A stretch of DNA of 64,000 bases from Tequatrovirus NIC06P2, in the sequence record OZ035760.1; one strand, 5' to 3'. The position numbers and the translations under genes are program-made. This document shows positions 46,086-63,345 of this stretch, one piece after another (the stretch's first letter is position 1; every line of letters begins with the position of its first letter). Below the pieces are notes generated by a model. That model searched no databases, was not told the DNA's origin, and saw nothing but the letters and a program-made list of their open reading frames with translations.

Positions 46086-46302
46086 ATTGTTTTTCCGTTA
46101 ATACAGTAATATCGTAGTAACAGTCAGAAGAAGTTTTAACTGTGGAAATTTTATTGTCAAAATATTCACGAGTCATTTTATGAGTATAGTATTTTTTACC
46201 ATAAATGGTAATAGGCTGTTCTGGTCCTGGAACTTCTAACTCGCTTGGGTTAGGAAGTGTAAAAAGAACTACACCAGAAGTATCTTTAAATCGTAAAATC
46301 AT
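46039..46302 (-). CDS. Hypothetical protein (nrdA.2-like)
   Basis: 87-aa ORF, synteny. Confidence 0.5.
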
Positions 46303-47159
46303 ATTGCCATTTTCCCTTTAATTGCTGGATGCGATTCATAATTTTCAAGGATAAAATCTTTCGGTTTCATGTATTCAGTTAACCAGTAAAGCTGTGTTTC
46401 GGTGTCACAATTTCCAAACTCTATAGGCCAGTCAATTTTAAGTTCGCACAGTTCTTTAGGCTCACGACGTAAAATTTCTTTACATTGCTCAGTATGATTC
46501 ATATAGATGTGAGTATTACCACCAGAAAATATCAAATCTCCTGGGATAAGATTACACATCTTAGCCACAATATGCGTCAAGGCAGCGTACGAGGCAATGT
46601 TGAATGGCAAGCCCAAGAAAACATCTACACTTCTTTGGTACCATTGTAAATCAAGATAACCATTACGCACATTAAACTGATAGAACATATGACAGGGCGG
46701 TAATGCCATTTGATTGATTTCAGCTGGATTCCATGCTGAAACGATTTGACGTCGATCAGTTGGTAATTTTTTAATACGATCAATAGTTTCAACTAATTGA
46801 TCCACACCACCGAAATCACGCCATTGTTTACCGTATATAGGACCAAGTTCACCACTATGATATCCTAGGTCTTTAGCCTGGTTTTCATAGTTATCGTCCC
46901 AAATAGTTTTACCTTGAATAAGACTACCATGAGTGCGAAGACGTAAATCATTAACATTGGTAGAACCGGAAATAAACCATAGAAGCTCAGCAATGCATGC
47001 ATTCCAGGCGAGCTTTTTAGTTGTTACTGCAGGAAAACCTTTGGTTAAATCCCAACGCAATTTAGTACCGAACAAAGCAATTGTTCCTGTGCCCGTTCGA
47101 TCATCGGTTTCATAGCCATTTTCAAAAATGTCTTTAATTAAATCTTGGTATTGTTTCAT
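46299..47159 (-). CDS. td: Thymidylate synthase, uninterrupted (no intron)
   Basis: 286 aa continuous ORF recognised as T4 thymidylate synthase. Confidence 0.95.
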
Positions 47160-52719: not shown

Positions 52720-52727
52720 TATAAATA
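52720..52727 (+). promoter_or_regulatory. Late promoter TATAAATA upstream of gene 34
   Basis: Exact consensus about 35 nt before the start. Confidence 0.6.
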
Positions 52728-52761: not shown

Positions 52762-55700
52762 ATGGCCGAGATTAAAAGAAAGTTCAGAGCAGAAGATGGT
52801 CTGGACGCAGGTGGCGATAAAATAATCAACGTAGCTTTAGCTGATCGTGCCGTAGGAACTGACGGTGTTAACGTTGATTACCTAATTCAAGAAAACACAG
52901 TTCAACAATACGATCCAACTCGTGGATATTTAAAAGATTTCGTAATCATTTATGATAACCGCTTTTGGGCTGCTATAAATGATATTCCAAAACCAGCAGG
53001 AGCTTTTAATAGCGGACGCTGGAGAGCATTACGTACCGATGCTAACTGGATTACGGTTTCATCTGGTTCATATCAATTAAAATCCGGTGAAGCAATTTCG
53101 GTTAATACTGCAGCTGGAAATGACATCACGTTTACTTTACCATCTTCTCCAATTGATGGTGATACTATCGTTCTCCAAGATATTGGAGGAAAACCCGGAG
53201 TTAACCAAGTTTTAATTGTAGCTCCAGTACAAAGTATTGTAAACTTTAGAGGTGAACAAGTACGTTCAGTACTAATGACTCATCCAAAGTCACAGCTAGT
53301 TTTAATTTTTAGTAATCGTCTGTGGCAAATGTATGTTGCTGATTATAGTAGAGAAGCTGTAATTGTAACACCAGCGAATACTTATCAAGCACAATCAAAC
53401 GATTTTATCGTACGTAGATTTACTTCTGCTGCACCGATTAATATTAAACTTCCAAGATTTGCTAATCATGGCGATATTATTAATTTCGTCGATTTAGATA
53501 AACTAAATCCGCTTTATCATACAATTGTTACTACATACGATGAAACGACTTCAATACAAGAAGTTGGAACTCATTCCATTGAAGGCCGTACAACGATTGA
53601 CGGTTTCTTGATGTTTGATGATAATGAGAAATTGTGGAGATTGTTTGACGGGGATAGTAAAGCGCGTTTACGCATTATAACGACTAATTCTAATATTCGT
53701 CCAAATGAAGAAGTTATGGTATTTGGTGCGAATAACGGAACAACTCAAACAATTGAGCTTAAGCTTCCAACTAATATTTCTGTTGGTGATACTGTTAAAA
53801 TTTCCATGAATTACATGAGAAAAGGACAAACAGTTAAAATCAAAGCTGCTGATGAAGATAAAATTGCTTCTTCAGTTCAATTGCTGCAATTCCCAAAACG
53901 CTCAGAATATCCGCCTGAAGCTGAGTGGGTTACAGTCCAAGAATTAGTTTTTAATGGTGAAACTAATTATGTTCCAGTTTTAGAGCTTGCTTATATAGAA
54001 GATTCTGATGGAAAATACTGGGTTGTACAGCAAAACGTTCCAACTGTAGAAAGAGTAGATTCTTTAAATGATTCTACTAGAGCAAGATTAGGCGTAATTG
54101 CTTTAGCTACACAAGCTCAAGCAAATGTCGATTTAGAAAATTCTCCACAAAAAGAATTAGCAATTACTCCAGAAACGTTAGCTAATCGCACTGCTACTGA
54201 AACTCGCAGAGGTATTGCAAGAATAGCAACTACTGCTCAAGTGAATCAGAACACCACATTCTCTTTTGCAGATGACCTTATCATTACTCCTAAAAAGCTG
54301 AATGAAAGAACTGCTACAGAAACTCGTAGAGGTGTCGCTGAAATTGCTACGCAGCAGGAAACTAATACAGGTACTGATGATACTACAATCATTACTCCTA
54401 AAAAGCTTCAAGCTCGTCAAGGTTCTGAATCATTATCTGGTATTGTAACTTTTGTATCTACTGCAGGTGCTACTCCAGCTTCTAGCCGTGAATTAAATGG
54501 TACGAATGTTTATAATAAAAACACTAATAATTTAGTTGTTTCACCTAAAGCTTTGGATCAGTATAAAGCTACGCCTACTCAACAGGGTGCAGTAATTTTA
54601 GCAGTTGAAAGTGAAGTAATTGCTGGACAAAGTCAGCAAGGATGGGCAAATGCTGTTGTAACGCCAGAAACGTTACATAAAAAGACATCAACTGATGGAA
54701 GAATTGGTTTAATTGAAATTGCTACGCAAAGTGAAGTTAATACAGGAACTGATTATACTCGTGCAGTCACTCCTAAAACTTTAAATGGTCGTAAAGCAAC
54801 TGAAAGTTTAAGTGGTATAGCTGAAATTGCTACACAAGTTGAATTCGACGCAGGCGTCGACGATACTCGTATCTCTACACCATTAAAAATTAAAACCAGA
54901 TTTAATAGTACTGATCGTACTTCTGTTGTTGCTCTATCTGGATTAGTTGAATCAGGAACTCTCTGGGACCATTATACACTTAATATTCTTGAAGCAAATG
55001 AGACACAGCGTGGTACACTTCGTGTAGCTACACAGGTTGAAGCTGCTGCAGGAAAATTAGATAATGTTTTAATAACTCCTAAAAAGCTTTTAGGTACTAA
55101 ATCTACTGAAGCACAAGAAGGTGTTATTAAAGTTGCAACTCAGTCTGAAACTGTGACTGGAACGTCAGCAAATACTGCTGTATCTCCAAAAAATTTAAAA
55201 TGGATTGTGCAGAGTGAACCTACCTGGGCAGCTACTACTGCGATAAGAGGTTTTGTTAAAACTTCATCTGGTTCAATTACGTTCGTTGGTAATGATACGG
55301 TAGGTTCAACACAGCCATTAGAATCATATGAGAAAAATAGCTATGCAATATCACCATATGAATTAAACCGTGTATTAGCAAATTATCTGCCGTTAAAAGC
55401 AAAAGCTGTAGATAGTAATTTATTGGATGGTCTAGATTCATCTCAGTTCATTCGTAGGGATATTGCACAGACGGTTAATGGTTCACTAACCTTAACCCAA
55501 CAAACGAATCTGAGTGCCCCTCTTGTATCATCTAGTACTGCTACGTTTGGTGGTTCAGTTTCGGTAAATACATTAACTATTTCTAAAACTGGAACAGCAG
55601 CTCGTCTGATTTTTGAGAAAGGACCTCAAACTGAAACTAACCCAGCGCAGACGATGACTATCAAAGTTTGGGGAAACCAGTTTAGTGGCAGACCAGATTC

Positions 55701-56631
55701 AACGCGTTCTACTGTATTTGAAGTTGGTGATGAAACATCTCATCACTTTTATTCTCAGCGCAATACAGCTGGAAAGATATTGTTTAATATCAATGGTACT
55801 GTAATGCCGATAGATGTAAATGCTTCTGGTTCATTGAATGCGAATGGCGTTGCAACATTTGGTAATTCAGTTACTGCTAATGGAGAATTTACCAGTAAAT
55901 CAGCAAATGCTTTTAGAGCAATAAATGGAAATTACGGATTCTTTATTCGTAATGCTGGTAATGACACCTATTTTATGCTCACTGCAGCCGGTGATCAGTT
56001 TGGTGGATTTAATGGATTACGTCCATTATCAATTAATAATCAATCCGGTCAAGTTACAATTGGTGAAGGGCTTATCATTAGTAAAGGTGGAGCAACAATT
56101 AACAGCGGTGGTTTAACTGTTAACTCGAGAATTCGTTCTCAGGGTACTAAAACATCTGATTTATATACCCGTGCGCCAACATCTGATACTGTAGGATTCT
56201 GGTCAATCGATATTAACGATTCAGCCACTTATAACCAGTTCCCAGGTTATTTTAAAATGGTTGAAAAAACTAATGAAGTGACTGGGCTTCCATACTTAGA
56301 ACGTGGCGAAGAAGTTAAATCTCCTGGTACATTGACTCAGTTTGGTAACACACTTGATTCGCTTTACCAAGATTGGATTACTTATCCAACGACGCCAGAA
56401 GCGCGTACCACTCGCTGGACACGTACCTGGCAGAAAACCAAAAACTCTTGGTCAAGTTTTGTTCAGGTATTTGACGGAGGTAACCCTCCTCAACCATCTG
56501 ATATCGGTGCTTTACCATCTGATAATGCTACAATGGGAAATCTTACTATTCGTGATTTCTTACGAATTGGTAATGTTCGCATTGTTCCTGACCCAGTGAA
56601 TAAATCTGTTAAATTTGAATGGGTTGAATAA
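52762..56631 (+). CDS. 34: Long tail fibre proximal subunit gp34
   Basis: 1289 aa, same length as T4 gp34; late promoter upstream. Confidence 0.96.
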   Translation: MAEIKRKFRAEDGLDAGGDKIINVALADRAVGTDGVNVDYLIQENTVQQYDPTRGYLKDFVIIYDNRFWAAINDIPKPAGAFNSGRWRALRTDANWITVSSGSYQLKSGEAISVNTAAGNDITFTLPSSPIDGDTIVLQDIGGKPGVNQVLIVAPVQSIVNFRGEQVRSVLMTHPKSQLVLIFSNRLWQMYVADYSREAVIVTPANTYQAQSNDFIVRRFTSAAPINIKLPRFANHGDIINFVDLDKLNPLYHTIVTTYDETTSIQEVGTHSIEGRTTIDGFLMFDDNEKLWRLFDGDSKARLRIITTNSNIRPNEEVMVFGANNGTTQTIELKLPTNISVGDTVKISMNYMRKGQTVKIKAADEDKIASSVQLLQFPKRSEYPPEAEWVTVQELVFNGETNYVPVLELAYIEDSDGKYWVVQQNVPTVERVDSLNDSTRARLGVIALATQAQANVDLENSPQKELAITPETLANRTATETRRGIARIATTAQVNQNTTFSFADDLIITPKKLNERTATETRRGVAEIATQQETNTGTDDTTIITPKKLQARQGSESLSGIVTFVSTAGATPASSRELNGTNVYNKNTNNLVVSPKALDQYKATPTQQGAVILAVESEVIAGQSQQGWANAVVTPETLHKKTSTDGRIGLIEIATQSEVNTGTDYTRAVTPKTLNGRKATESLSGIAEIATQVEFDAGVDDTRISTPLKIKTRFNSTDRTSVVALSGLVESGTLWDHYTLNILEANETQRGTLRVATQVEAAAGKLDNVLITPKKLLGTKSTEAQEGVIKVATQSETVTGTSANTAVSPKNLKWIVQSEPTWAATTAIRGFVKTSSGSITFVGNDTVGSTQPLESYEKNSYAISPYELNRVLANYLPLKAKAVDSNLLDGLDSSQFIRRDIAQTVNGSLTLTQQTNLSAPLVSSSTATFGGSVSVNTLTISKTGTAARLIFEKGPQTETNPAQTMTIKVWGNQFSGRPDSTRSTVFEVGDETSHHFYSQRNTAGKILFNINGTVMPIDVNASGSLNANGVATFGNSVTANGEFTSKSANAFRAINGNYGFFIRNAGNDTYFMLTAAGDQFGGFNGLRPLSINNQSGQVTIGEGLIISKGGATINSGGLTVNSRIRSQGTKTSDLYTRAPTSDTVGFWSIDINDSATYNQFPGYFKMVEKTNEVTGLPYLERGEEVKSPGTLTQFGNTLDSLYQDWITYPTTPEARTTRWTRTWQKTKNSWSSFVQVFDGGNPPQPSDIGALPSDNATMGNLTIRDFLRIGNVRIVPDPVNKSVKFEWVE

Positions 56632-56639
56632 GAGGTATT

Positions 56640-57755
56640 ATGGAAAAATTTATGGCAGAGTTTGGACAAGGATATGTCCAAACGCCATTTTTATCGGAAA
56701 GCAATTCAGTAAGATACAAAATAAGTATAGCGGGTTCTTGCCCGCTTTCTACAGCAGGACCATACGTTAAATTTCAGGATAATCCTATCGGAAATCAAAC
56801 ATTTAGCGCAGGCCTTCATTTAAGAGTTTTTGACCCTTCCACCGGAGCATTAGTTGATAGTAAGTCATATGCTTTTTCGACTTCAAATGATACTACATCA
56901 GCTGCTTTTGTTAGTTTCATGAATTCTTTGACGAATAATCGAATTGTTGCTATATTAACTAACGGAAAGGTTAATTTTCCTCCTGAAGTAGTATCTTGGT
57001 TAAGAACCGCCGGAACGTCTGCCTTTCCATCTGATTCCATATTGTCAAGATTCGACGTATCATATGCTGCTTTTTACACTTCTTCTAAAAGAGCTATTGC
57101 ATTAGAGCATGTTAAACTGAGTAATAGAAAAAGCACAGATGACTATCAAACTATTTTAGATGTTGTATTTGACAGTTTAGAAGATGTTGGAGCTACCGGG
57201 TTTCCAAGAAGAACGTATGAAAGCGTTGAGCAATTTATGTCAGCGGTTGGTGGAACTAATAACGAAATTGCGCGTCTACCAACTTCAGCTGCTATAAGTA
57301 AATTATCTGATTATAATTTAGTTCCTGGTGATGTTCTTTATCTTAAAACACAACTATACGCTGACGCTGATTTACTTGCTCTTGGAACTACAAATATATC
57401 TATCCGTTTTTATAATTCATCTAATGGATATATTTCCTCGACACATGCTGAATTTACTGGACAAGCTGGTGTTTGGGAATTAAAGGAAGATTATGTAGTT
57501 GTTCCAGAAAACGCAGTAGGATTTACGATATATGCACAAAGAACTGCACAAGCTGGCCAAGGTGGCATGAGAAATTTAAGCTTTTCTGAGGTGTCAAGAA
57601 ATGGTAGTATTTCGAAACCCGCTGAATTTGGCGTCAATGGTATTCGAGTTAATTATGTCTGTGAATCCGCTTCACCTCCGGATATAATGGTACTTCCTAC
57701 ACAAGCATCGTCTAAAACTGGTAAAGTGTTTGGGCAAGAATTTAGAGAAGTATAA
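56640..57755 (+). CDS. 35: Long tail fibre hinge connector gp35
   Basis: 371 aa, recognised as T4 gp35. Confidence 0.95.
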   Translation: MEKFMAEFGQGYVQTPFLSESNSVRYKISIAGSCPLSTAGPYVKFQDNPIGNQTFSAGLHLRVFDPSTGALVDSKSYAFSTSNDTTSAAFVSFMNSLTNNRIVAILTNGKVNFPPEVVSWLRTAGTSAFPSDSILSRFDVSYAAFYTSSKRAIALEHVKLSNRKSTDDYQTILDVVFDSLEDVGATGFPRRTYESVEQFMSAVGGTNNEIARLPTSAAISKLSDYNLVPGDVLYLKTQLYADADLLALGTTNISIRFYNSSNGYISSTHAEFTGQAGVWELKEDYVVVPENAVGFTIYAQRTAQAGQGGMRNLSFSEVSRNGSISKPAEFGVNGIRVNYVCESASPPDIMVLPTQASSKTGKVFGQEFREV

Positions 57756-57786: not shown

Positions 57787-57794
57787 TATAAATA
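57787..57794 (+). promoter_or_regulatory. Late promoter TATAAATA upstream of gene 36
   Basis: Exact consensus directly after the gene 35 terminator. Confidence 0.6.
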
Positions 57795-57817: not shown

Positions 57818-58507
57818 ATGGCTGATTTAAAAGTAGGTTCAACAACTGGAGGCTCTGTCATTTGGCATCAAGGAAATTTTCCATTGAATCCAGCCGGTGA
57901 CGATGTACTCTATAAATCATTTAAAATATATTCAGAATATAACAAACCACAAGCTGCTGATAACGATTTCGTTTCTAAAGCTAATGGTGGCACAGATTCT
58001 CAAGGTTTCCAAAAAGAAGTAGAATTTAAAAAAGGTGTTAAGATTTCTGCAACGTTTTCTGGCGGTTCAAACCTGAATGGGTTATATTCTGGCAATGGAG
58101 ATGGAGCTTCCAGAGAAAAAGCTAACATGGATTTACGTTCATGGTACGGCATTGGTATTTGGAACTCATGCACAGGTGATGGGATCCAGGGACGCACAAT
58201 CTGGTTTAATGTCAGGCGTGGTACAGTTGAAACACTTGGCGATATTGTTTCGGGCAAACAAGTTATTTCTAATGCTTCAGGACCGACCGGCCCAGCACAC
58301 TTAACTCGCAAAGATTATGTTGATGGAGCAATAAATAATGTTACAGCAAATGCGAACTCTAGAGTGTTGCGTTCTGGTGACACTATGACAGGTAATTTAA
58401 CGGCGCCAAACTTTTTCTCGCAGAATCCCGCATCTCAACCTTCACATGTTCCACGATTTGACCAAATCGTAATTAAGGATTCTGTTCAAGATTTCGGCTA
58501 TTATTAA
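57818..58507 (+). CDS. 36: Long tail fibre distal connector gp36
   Basis: 229 aa, N- and C-termini recognised as T4 gp36. Confidence 0.93.
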
Positions 58508-58515
58508 GAGGACTT

Positions 58516-61500
58516 ATGGCTACTTTAAAACAAATACAATTTAAAAGAAGCAAAACCGCAGGTGCACGTCCTGCTGCTTCAGTATTAGCCGAAGGTGAAT
58601 TGGCTATAAACTTAAAAGATAGAACAATTTTTACTAAAGATGATTCAGGAAATATCATTGATTTAGGTATTGCTAAAGGCGGCCAGGTTGATGGTGATGT
58701 GACTATCAATGGTAAATTAACATTAAATGGCGCGTATGTTCAGACGCTGGCTGGTATTAATACTACGGGTGGTATTAATTCTGGGGCCGCTATAAGTGCA
58801 ACAACTTATTATGCTCGGTCTGGTTCTTTTTATGCTCGTGCTCCAGATGCCAATGCGAATACACATGTTTGGTTTGAAAATAACAATGGTATAGAACGTG
58901 GTGTGATTTGGGCTGTTCCGAACACTTCAGACCTAGGCTCGGTACGTATTCGAGCAAAAACCACAGGCGGTGTTTTCGCCGGCGAGTACAGTTTCCGCTC
59001 TGATGGCCGATTTGATGTTCCTGTAGCAGTTAAAATCGGCGGAGCAGCGATGCTAACCAAAGATGGCAACATTACCTCTGGTTCTATGTTTGGCGGTAAC
59101 CTTAACAACTATTTGACTTCTATTAAAAATGACATTGTTGCTGGTGATAATAAGAAAGTAAGTAAAACCGGTGACACGATGTCCGGCAACTTGACTATTA
59201 ACGCTAACTTAAAAGTCGAAAACTCTAATGGAACGTTTGTTGATTTAGGTTCAGAGAACTCTGATAAGTATAGCAGATTAACTCTTGCTCGTAAAATTGG
59301 CGATGGCGCTGGTGTAGCAATGCTTAAAGTTACTCCTGAAGGAAACGTGCAATTTGGTTATCAACCTACAGTTGCTACTCCATCTCCTACCAAGTATATT
59401 CTAATTAAACCTAACGGTCTTGAAGTAGAAGGTGATTTAGTTTTTAAGCAAACTTATCGTGGTGTTGAAGAAGCATTTGATATTACTGATCAGACTATTG
59501 ACCTTAATAGCCTTATTATTAGAGGATCAGATTTAGGTACTCGTAAGCTGTATAAATGCAGATCATCTGGAGGTGGTTCTAATATATTGAACAAACCTAC
59601 ATCTGACGGCAACTTTACTCTTGAAGTTCTGTCTTTACGCAAGGTTTCTGATACCGATTGGTCATGTAAGCAGACCTTTACTACAAAGAACAATAATGTT
59701 GTAGGCGTATATGTTCGCTACGGGCAAGGCGGCTCATGGTCTGCATGGCAAGAAGTTGTATCTGGCGTTCAGCCAATTAATTTAGGTGGTACTGGAGCAA
59801 CTTCTGCAGCTGCTGCCCGTAATAACCTTGGTGTTGGTGCAGGCCAAACTGTAACATTCGGTAATTTAGTTACCACCGATTTAACTGCAAACGGAAACGT
59901 TAGATTAGTTGGAAGACTGAACTTTGGTTCTAATTCTCAGTCGGCTGGTGTATTACGCGCCAACGAAGGTGGGGCTGTTGTTTTAAGTTCTGCAAGTGGT
60001 GCAAACATCCACATCAGAGCGGGCGGCGATACTTCTACTGGTGAAACTCGCTTTGAGCCAAATGGCAACGTTGTAGTTGGTGGAGCTATTACAACATCTC
60101 AGCGTATTACAGTTAATGCTGCCACCGATGCTATTGTTGTTAACGCTCCAACTCAAGCATCATCCAACTATATTCAGGGTCGTAAAGCTGGTGTCGCTAA
60201 ATGGTATGTCGGCATTGGCGATGATGGTGATGCAGTACGTCTACATAACAATGTATATTACCATGGTATTGGATTGAGCGCTGATACTGTCGATATTACC
60301 AAGCCTCTTAAAGTCGGAAATGCCAAACTAGGAACTGATGGTAATATCACCGGTGGTTCTGGCAATTTTTCTAACTTGAACACAACATTAAACCGTAAAG
60401 TTAATGTTGGTACATGGTCAGGTGTTGATAAAGTAGTAGGTTGGTACTGGTACAAATTTGCTACTGTAACAATGCCACAATCTGCATCTACCGCGCGTTT
60501 CAAAATTATCGGCGGGAATGGTTATAATGCTAATGCTCCTGAACAAGCATCTGTAAGTGAAATTGTTCTTAGAACTGGTAATAATAATCCTAAATCTATT
60601 AATGCGGTGCTGTGGTCTAGCACTAGTACCGGCCCGTCAAACATTGCTACAGTGAATACATCTGGCGATAATTATGATGTATATGTATACATGGGCAATT
60701 TTGCCCAATCTTTATTGGTTGAATATGATGCTACAGATACTCGTTATATTTCGGTAATCGGTCTTAATGGTGCATCTCAATCACCGGTAGAAGAGCTTCC
60801 TGTGAATAATGTTAAAGGTCGTGTTTTTAAACTTCTTAATAACAGCTCGGGTGTTTTTGATGCAGATAGTTCTAATATTTCTACAAACGCAACTTTTGTG
60901 GCAAATACTCCTTTAGGATTCCGTCACAAATCTAACGGCGACGAAAGTGGCTCTGCCGCTACTCTGCTTTATAATGATGGTACTACGTTCCACATATTAT
61001 TAACAGATAAAAATACCAATACTGATAGAACTAAAGCCTCTGGTTCTTATAATAGCTTGAGACCTTTTTCTATCGATATCGCTTCAGGTAAAGTAACTAT
61101 TTCACACTCTATGAGCGTTTTTGGGGTATCAGAGTTTTATACTGGCCTTAACATCAAAAATAATGGAATTAACTTTGATAAGTCTGGTGCTAACCCGAGA
61201 AACATGAGAATATTCCATGCCGGAGATGCCACACGTGGTAACCGTATTGAAATTGCTGATGATTCAAGTTATTTGGTTTATTTCCAACGTTTACCGGGCG
61301 GCGCTAACCAGTGTACATTTAACTCTGCTGCTCTTTCTGGTATAACACAGACTAACTCTTTTGGTATTAATACAACAAATGCATGGGGTGGTAACTCAAT
61401 TACAATAGGTGATAACGATACTGGTTTTAGACAAGTAGGCGATGGGCTTTTAGAAGCGTGGGCGAACAATGTTAAAGTTGTTAGATTCACCTCAGGTGAA

Positions 61501-61845
61501 GTTTATTCCGAGAAAAACGTCAACGCTCCTAATGTTTACATTCGTTCTGATGTTCGCTTGAAATCTAATTTCAAACCTATTAAAAATGCGCTCGAAAGGG
61601 TTGAGCAACTTGATGGTTTAATCTATGACAAAGCTGAATATATAGGCGGTGAACCTGCTCAAACAGAAGCGGGTATTATAGCTCAAACGTTGCAAGACGT
61701 TTTACCAGAAGCAGTCCGTGAATCAGAAGACAGCAAGGGTAATAAAATACTCACTGTTTCTTCTCAAGCCCAGATTGCTCTTCTGGTTGAAGCTGTGAAA
61801 ACACTTTCTTCTCGTGTAAAAGAACTTGAATCTAAACTTATGTAA
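58516..61845 (+). CDS. 37: Long tail fibre distal subunit gp37 with C-terminal intramolecular chaperone (peptidase S74-like) domain
   Basis: 1109 aa; N-terminal part T4-like; C-terminal about 98 aa after RSDVRLK match the self-cleaving chaperone consensus ([24 protein letters not shown]). Confidence 0.93.
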
Positions 61846-61847
61846 AA

Positions 61848-61863
61848 GAGGGCTTCGGCCCTC
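61848..61863 (+). other. Hairpin GAGGGC-UUCG-GCCCUC between genes 37 and 38
   Basis: 6-bp stem with UUCG loop, no clean U-run. Confidence 0.45.
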
Positions 61864-61875
61864 TAAGGATTTTTA

Positions 61876-62658
61876 ATGGCAATTGTAGGTGTTCCTGGCT
61901 GGATTGGTGAATCTGCCGTGAATGAAACTGGACAACGTTGGATGGATGCTGCAATGAGAGCAGTTCGTGTTTCAGTTCCCGGTTGGATGAGCTCAATGGC
62001 TGGACAATCTAAAGAAATTATTCACACGCTTGGAGCAGACCATAACTTCAATGGTCAATGGTTCCGAGATAGGTGTTTTGAGGCAGGTAGTACACCTATA
62101 GTGTTTAATATTACAGGTGATTTAGTATCATATTCTAAAGATGTTCCTTTATTCTTCATGTATGGAGATACACCGAATGAATATGTTCAGTTGAATATAC
62201 ACGGCGTAACGATGTATGGACGTGGCGGTAATGGCGGTAGCAATAGTCCTGGCTCAGCTGGAGGTCATTGTATTCAAAATGATATTGGTGGGAGACTAAG
62301 AATTAATAATGGTGGAGCTATTGCTGGCGGCGGCGGTGGCGGTGGCGGCGGATATTATTCTCCTTTTTCACAAATGAGATTGACCTTTGGCGGCGGTGGC
62401 GGTCGTCCTTTTGGTGCGCCAGGCGGATCTATTGATATGCAATCAGGCGCGACTGGTGGTACTATTTCTGCACCTGGCTCAGGATCCGTGAATGGTATCT
62501 ATAATGGCGGAAACGGTGGTGAAGTAGGTTCCGCGGGAGGTAGATGCAATATTCGCGGTCAAGGATCTGAATATAATGGCGGCGCTGCTGGTTATGCTGT
62601 CATAGGGTCCGCTCCAACGTGGCAAAATGTTGGAGCAATATATGGTCCAAGAGTATAA
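61876..62658 (+). CDS. 38: gp38 receptor-binding adhesin, T2 type (glycine-rich motifs)
   Basis: 260 aa; conserved N-terminus [11 protein letters not shown], poly-Gly motifs [11 protein letters not shown] and GGGGGRPFG separated by variable segments. Confidence 0.85.
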
Positions 62659-62688: not shown

Positions 62689-63345
62689 ATGGCAGCACCT
62701 AGAATATCATTTTCGCCCTCTGATATTCTATTTGGTGTTCTAGATCGCTTGTTCAAAGATAATGCTACCGGGAAAGTTCTTGCTTCCCGGGTAGCTGTCG
62801 TAATTCTTTTGTTTATAATGGCGATTGTTTGGTATAGGGGAGATAGTTTCTTTGAGTACTATAAGCAATCAAAGTATGAAACATACAGCGAAATTATTGA
62901 AAAGGAAAGAAATGCACGCTTTGAATCTGTCGCCCTGGAACAACTCCAGATAGTTCATATATCATCTGAGGCAGACTTTAGTGCGGTGTATTCTTTCCGC
63001 CCTAAAAACTTAAACTATTTTGTTGATATTATAGCATACGAAGGAAAATTACCTTCAACAATAAGCGAAAAATCACTTGGAGGATATCCTGTTGATAAAA
63101 CTATGGATGAATATGCAGTTCATTTAAATGGACGTCATTATTATTCCGACTCAAAATTTGCTTTTTTACCAACTAAAAAGCCTACTCCCGAAATAAACTA
63201 CATGTACAGTTGTCCATATTTTAATTTGGATAATATCTATGCTGGAACGATAACCATGTACTGGTATAGAAATGATCATATAAGTAATGACCGCCTTGAA
63301 TCAATATGTGCTCAGGCGGCCAGAATATTAGGAAGGGCTAAATAA
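62689..63345 (+). CDS. t: Holin T
   Basis: 218 aa, single TM segment, recognised as T4 holin. Confidence 0.95.
   Translation: MAAPRISFSPSDILFGVLDRLFKDNATGKVLASRVAVVILLFIMAIVWYRGDSFFEYYKQSKYETYSEIIEKERNARFESVALEQLQIVHISSEADFSAVYSFRPKNLNYFVDIIAYEGKLPSTISEKSLGGYPVDKTMDEYAVHLNGRHYYSDSKFAFLPTKKPTPEINYMYSCPYFNLDNIYAGTITMYWYRNDHISNDRLESICAQAARILGRAK

Follow-up and report, generated by a model that had tools for sequence, protein, structure and literature searches.

The right end of the window, meaning the whole 64-kb stretch of DNA that was analysed, carries the long-tail-fibre locus of a T-even phage on the + strand according to the ORF list. Outside the fibre region, many Tequatrovirus genomes share about 96-97% identity with the window. 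The genes of the locus and the features of gp37 are as follows:

52762-56631, + strand: gp34, 1289 aa (ORF list)
56640-57755, + strand: gp35 (ORF list)
57818-58507, + strand: gp36 (ORF list)
58516-61845, + strand: gp37, full ORF, 1109 aa (ORF list)
58516-61545, + strand: predicted mature gp37, residues 1-1010, distal half-fibre, ending in NAPNVYIR
61546-61548, + strand: TCT codon of Ser1011, the predicted nucleophile, with which the released domain begins
61561-61563, + strand: codon of Lys1016, predicted general base of a Ser-Lys dyad (Ser+5)
61546-61842, + strand: C-terminal intramolecular chaperone domain, Peptidase_S74 type, Ser1011-Met1109, 99 aa
61843-61845, + strand: TAA stop codon of gp37 (ORF list and sequence)
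61876-62658, + strand: gp38, T2-type adhesin, 260 aa (Pfam GP38 and Gp38_N)
62689-63345, + strand: holin t (ORF list)

The gp37 ORF encodes the 1109 aa given in a preliminary description of this DNA, and the feature singled out there, at 61546-61845, runs from the serine codon through the stop codon. As had been noted, the serine encoded by TCT at 61546-61548 immediately precedes DVRLK, in the context NAPNVYIR-S1011-DVRLK1016-SNFKPI. A predicted cut before Ser1011 leaves residues 1-1010, in agreement with the mature form of roughly 1010 residues that had been proposed. The domain had been correctly placed at the end of the protein, but the 98 residues assigned to it have to be changed to 99, counted from the conserved serine. 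It thus occupies the extreme C-terminus of the distal long-tail-fibre subunit (the last 99 of 1109 residues). Besides gp37, no ORF of at least 60 aa overlaps 61546-61845 on either strand, and an overlapping gene or an opposite-strand feature at this position was rejected on that ground.

The assignment to the S74 type, which had been made from the letters of the translation, was borne out by the profile search. Pfam Peptidase_S74 (PF13884, 'Chaperone of endosialidase') matched gp37 residues 1011-1068 with E=1.8e-14 and 54.2 bits, the curated gathering cut-off being 22 bits, and the profile was covered end to end (positions 1-58 of 58). This match is far beyond chance. A homologue search over 5.8 billion proteins returned 24 sequences, mostly short fragments, which suffices for an alignment and not for a description of diversity. 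Almost no variation is seen at Ser1011 and Asp1012 in the alignment with 23-24 homologues, and none at Lys1016, Gly1053, Ala1056 and the VLPEA block at 1062-1066; gp37 keeps both the catalytic pair Ser-x4-Lys (S1011/K1016) and the G..AQ....VLPEAV core. A degenerate or inactive S74 domain was rejected, since the catalytic residues and the core are intact and the domain shares 77-80% identity with that of T2. Using tblastn against phage genomes, the C-terminal region of gp37 was present in 1,560 phage records, with matches that include coliphage, Klebsiella, Salmonella, Aeromonas, Vibrio and cyanophage fibre genes.

Some short protein entries labelled 'tail fiber domain-containing protein [Escherichia coli]' (P0002 and P0004, 95-121 aa) start with the cleavage motif or a little ahead of it and consist of little more than the chaperone domain. 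One such entry lies on a contig of 168,860 bp. These entries are probably from phage genomes filed under E. coli, in which g37 was called as fragments.

When the PDB was searched with the single sequence, S16 gp37 was matched with E=4e-10, together with a marginal match to MyRF; coiled-coil matches to haemagglutinin HA2 (E of at least 0.25) were set aside as spurious, the profile search having settled the matter. The latter gave S16 gp37 (6f45, 7e-20), the ICA domain of MyRF (7dc3, 2e-11), a tail fibre (8jov, 6.5e-11) and the GA-1 neck-appendage chaperone (3gud). The stretch SDRRIKK of S16 aligns with that of gp37 at Ser1011, and the 3gud crystal chain starts exactly at the serine aligned with Ser1011 (SDERHK...).

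The fold was predicted with an AlphaFold monomer model built on the last 148 residues of gp37. The mean pLDDT was 81. Over the chaperone part, values were mostly 85-98, falling to 72 at query residues 81-90; in the stretch that leads up to the cleavage site (query 33-45, corresponding to gp37 994-1006), this monomer model stayed below 50. The model consists of a mixed α/β part at 1011-1082 followed by a 26-residue terminal helix at about 1083-1108 (query 122-147), which presumably forms a trimeric coiled coil in the fibre. Foldseek against the PDB ranked the MyRF ICA domain (7dc3) at the top with E=8e-6, a TM score of 0.62-0.65 and 24% identity; MyRF is a eukaryotic membrane-bound transcription factor, and its homology with gp37 is at the domain level only. 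It was followed by 3gw6 ('Intramolecular Chaperone', endosialidase K1F), 3gud and 6f45. The gp37 residues that precede the cleavage site align with the mature S16 tip in the last of these.

The likeness to endosialidase and T5 chaperones that had been recognized at the outset was thus recovered in the Ser/Lys dyad, the core motif and the fold. The chaperones of K1F (3GW6), GA-1 gp12 (3GUD) and T5 pb1 (4UW8) share with gp37 the family profile, the Ser-x4-Lys dyad and an α/β body with a C-terminal helix, and each forms the C-terminal end of a fibre or spike protein that is trimeric. In structural alignments with chaperones of the K1F, GA-1 and T5 family, however, only 13-22% of the residues are identical, and 3gw6, whose chain includes stalk residues, superposes poorly overall on the model (rmsd about 18 Å). 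The client proteins also differ, being a triple β-helix tip capped by gp38 in this phage, the sialidase stalk in K1F and the bullet domain in T5.

Among phages with a comparable fibre, T2 shows the same gene at the same position, in the order g36-g37-g38-t. T2 gp37 (1341 aa) gave a Pfam S74 match at 1243-1300 with E=3.3e-15, and it has the identical NAPNVYIR cleavage motif and likewise 99 aa counted from the serine. The C-terminus of the window gp37 is 80% identical to that of T2 over 148 aa and, by BLASTP, 77% over 167 aa, and it is 97% identical to that of phage ECO78 over the last 148 residues. PMC3157838, citing Drexler 1986, describes the C-terminus of gp37 in T2 and T6 as being proteolytically cleaved, after which gp38 caps the fibre, and credits the processing of T2 gp37 to Drexler, Riede and Henning 1986.

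The similarity is not uniform along the protein. According to BLASTP, residues 1-162 are 63-64% identical to T4 and ECO78 gp37, residues from about 598 to 870 are 51% identical to T2, and residues 943-1109 are 77% identical to T2 and 94% to ECO78, while the central shaft (residues 163-597) had no match in T2, T4 or ECO78 gp37. Pfam gp37_trimer matches at residues 545-613. In comparison with T2, the shaft is mosaic and shorter (1109 versus 1341 aa for the whole protein), the window gp37 being some 200-230 residues shorter than both T2 and ECO78 gp37. In a nucleotide search of phage records, none covered at least 80% of the g37-g38 DNA, and the best match was FL12, with 66% coverage and 92.5% identity. 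From these comparisons, gp37 gives the impression of a mosaic fibre protein whose shaft module may be uncommon. Modular shuffling of this kind is usual in fibre genes, the C-terminal tip and chaperone module travelling jointly with the matching gp38 N-terminus (PMC3157838).

The partner gp38 is encoded directly downstream of g37 and matched Pfam GP38 with E=7.3e-72 and Gp38_N with E=3.5e-18, as expected from the earlier proposal of a T2-type fibre with a separate gp38 adhesin. In its N-terminal attachment domain, W9, W22 and W37 are at positions identical to those in T2 and ECO78 gp38. The T2 gp38 N-terminus, with the same three tryptophans, is nearly identical to that of the window protein, whereas the specificity region differs, and only residues 1-145 of the window gp38 align (62%). 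In S16, three gp38 tryptophans insert into pockets on the gp37 tip, as described in PMC6851490 and PMC7917993, and W9, W22 and W37 are presumably their counterparts. To judge from these sequences, the fibre of this phage is of the T2 type, with a gp38 adhesin predicted to cap the tip of gp37.

T4 gp37 (1026 aa) occupies the same gene position but, as had been stated beforehand, it is devoid of the domain: Pfam gave no S74 match in it and instead Collar and Phage_fiber modules at its C-terminus, neither of which was detected by Pfam in the window gp37. BLASTP showed no similarity between the window gp37 and the T4 gp37 C-terminus, the two proteins sharing only the N-terminal 162 aa (64%) and one weak internal match. 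Neither was there any BLASTP similarity to T4 gp38, an unrelated assembly factor of 183 aa as opposed to the window adhesin. The locus is thus not of the T4 type, with a Collar/needle gp37 tip and a gp38 assembly factor. The role of gp38 and gp57 as chaperones in T4, also mentioned in the preliminary description, is given in PMC3157838, where they act in place of a built-in domain. The gp37 chaperone takes the place of the T4-type gp38 chaperone; this says nothing about dependence on the general chaperone gp57A, whose gene is outside the window.

The cleavage site was compared with those of better characterized relatives. The gp37 of Salmonella phage S16 (6F45; Dunne et al. 2018) is the best PDB sequence match and shares both SD.R.K at the cleavage point and a polyglycine gp38 adhesin as partner. 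According to PMC7917993, its last 113 residues are autocleaved between two serines (DLNVS^SDRRIKK), exposing the docking surface for gp38. The S16 chaperone is longer (113 aa after DLNVS versus 99 aa after NVYIR), and the sequences of the mature tips differ. The 6f45 entry has a construct sequence of 204 residues that includes the chaperone domain, while the modelled chains have 68-72 residues, as would be expected if the chaperone had come off before crystals formed; N-terminal disorder may contribute. For the T4-like fPS phages of Yersinia, cleavage has been predicted at DVYIR^SDGRLKI (PMC7917993), which resembles NVYIR|SDVRLKS in the window gp37. In T5 pb1, the Thr1263-Ser1264 bond is cut, Lys1269 activating Ser1264 only after correct folding of the trimer, and the change of the serine to alanine prevents cleavage (PMC4690869); the spacing of Ser1264 and Lys1269 is the same as that of Ser1011 and Lys1016. 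The conserved serine departs with the chaperone in K1F and T5 (PMC4690869). According to PMC7917993, PMC7289586, PMC3157838 and PMC4690869, autoproteolytic release has been found experimentally in T5, K1F and S16, and processing has been reported for T2. Since the spacing matches that of T5 and the site matches those of S16 and the Yersinia phages, it is predicted for this phage that the cut falls between Arg1010 and Ser1011, that mature gp37 has 1010 residues, that a chaperone of 99 aa is released and that gp38 caps the fibre.

At P1, the window gp37 has Arg where T5 has Thr and S16 has Ser. The difference is no real objection, because the Arg is shared with T2, where processing has been observed. 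In T5, upstream residues of the mature part, Arg1250 and Asp1239, act as a folding sensor (PMC4690869); their counterparts in gp37 are not identifiable because the mature tips cannot be aligned.

The analysis establishes the domain with its catalytic residues and class of fold, the near-identity to T2, the lack of the domain in T4 gp37 and a T2-type gp38. We consider it very probable that Ser1011-Met1109 is a Peptidase_S74-type chaperone which folds the gp37 trimer, cleaves itself off and is released, with gp38 docking afterwards. That this phage cleaves and releases the domain, and in which order the steps follow, we infer by analogy with T2, S16, T5 and K1F. The terminal helix and the α/β body would align three gp37 chains in register from the C-terminus, and folding of the distal triple β-helix would be nucleated in this way. 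After correct folding of the trimer, Lys1016 would activate Ser1011, which would cut the Arg1010-Ser1011 bond in each chain. The trimer of the 99-aa chaperone would then leave, so that mature gp37 (1-1010) would end in ...NVYIR, and the exposed surface would receive one copy of the T2-type gp38 through W9, W22 and W37.

A separate protease of the phage or the host might remove the C-terminal segment, which would then be a pro-peptide and no chaperone. The original 1986 work on T2 is said to have shown the processing of gp37 without identifying the protease responsible, which leaves a place for such an enzyme. Nevertheless, both sequence and fold put the domain in an autoproteolytic family, and the recombinant proteins of K1F, T5 and S16 cleave themselves in E. 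coli without other phage proteins, a reaction blocked by exchange of Ser for Ala (PMC7917993, PMC4690869), so that an external protease appears extremely unlikely here. Very unlikely too is an S74-like domain that has ceased to be cleaved and remains part of the virion, where it would permanently cap the C-terminus of gp37 and serve in trimerisation. The single point in favour of such a cap is that cleavage in this phage is drawn from homology. Against it, neither the catalytic Ser and Lys nor any part of the core motif has been lost, and T2, where processing was shown, has a domain that is 77-80% identical. Moreover, a retained chaperone would sit on the tip at which gp38 docks, according to the S16 work (PMC7917993), and a mutant T5 fragment that kept its chaperone lost competitive inhibition of infection (PMC4690869).

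A chaperone that folds the trimer and then releases itself is thus the preferred reading. That the released trimer has a second role, such as gating or timing the capping by gp38 or an effect in trans on other proteins of the fibre, or that Arg at P1 reflects a variant of the activation, is highly improbable.

The interpretation first proposed for gp37 is supported and already established, being the textbook arrangement of T2-type fibres. Its presentation as a distinctive trait did not hold, because this organization is the documented norm for fibres of the T2, T6 and S16 type (PMC3157838, PMC7917993, PMC7289586). Among T-even phages it is usual for a self-cleaving gp37 to be combined with a gp38 adhesin, and T4 departs from this (PMC3157838, PMC6851490), T4 being the less common type according to the authors of the S16 structure (PMC6851490). 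No new biology is added, and the value of the result lies in correct annotation and in engineering. For annotation, the mature gp37 of this phage is best taken as residues 1-1010. For recombinant fibres and host-range swaps, the 99-aa chaperone must be retained in the construct, and the tip of gp37 and the N-terminus of gp38 must continue to fit each other.

A hairpin was observed at 61847-61864 on the + strand, after the stop codon of gp37 and ahead of the ribosome-binding site and start codon (ATG, 61876) of gp38. It has a G+C-rich stem of 7 bp and a UUCG tetraloop (AGAGGGC-UUCG-GCCCUCU), and is followed by AAGGAUUUUU. Its free energy is -13.4 kcal/mol, with z = -2.1 relative to shuffled sequences. 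Stable intercistronic C(UUCG)G hairpins are a feature of T4 mRNAs. The hairpin resembles them and may serve in stabilisation of the transcript or in partial termination.

The window contains 20 copies of the T4 late-promoter consensus TATAAATA, where 8.5 would be expected. Two copies, at 52720-52727 and 57787-57794 on the + strand, are located just upstream of g34 and g36, and the other 18 sites are elsewhere. Directly upstream of g37 or g38 there is none, which suggests that g36, g37 and g38 are transcribed together.

RNA elements were also considered and rejected, since over the whole 64 kb there was no tRNA gene and no Rfam family reached its gathering threshold, and this includes group I introns. 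In T4, td and nrdB contain introns. On the - strand of the window, an uninterrupted ORF of 286 aa is located at 46299-47159; 286 aa is the length of T4 td, and the ORF is a candidate td only.
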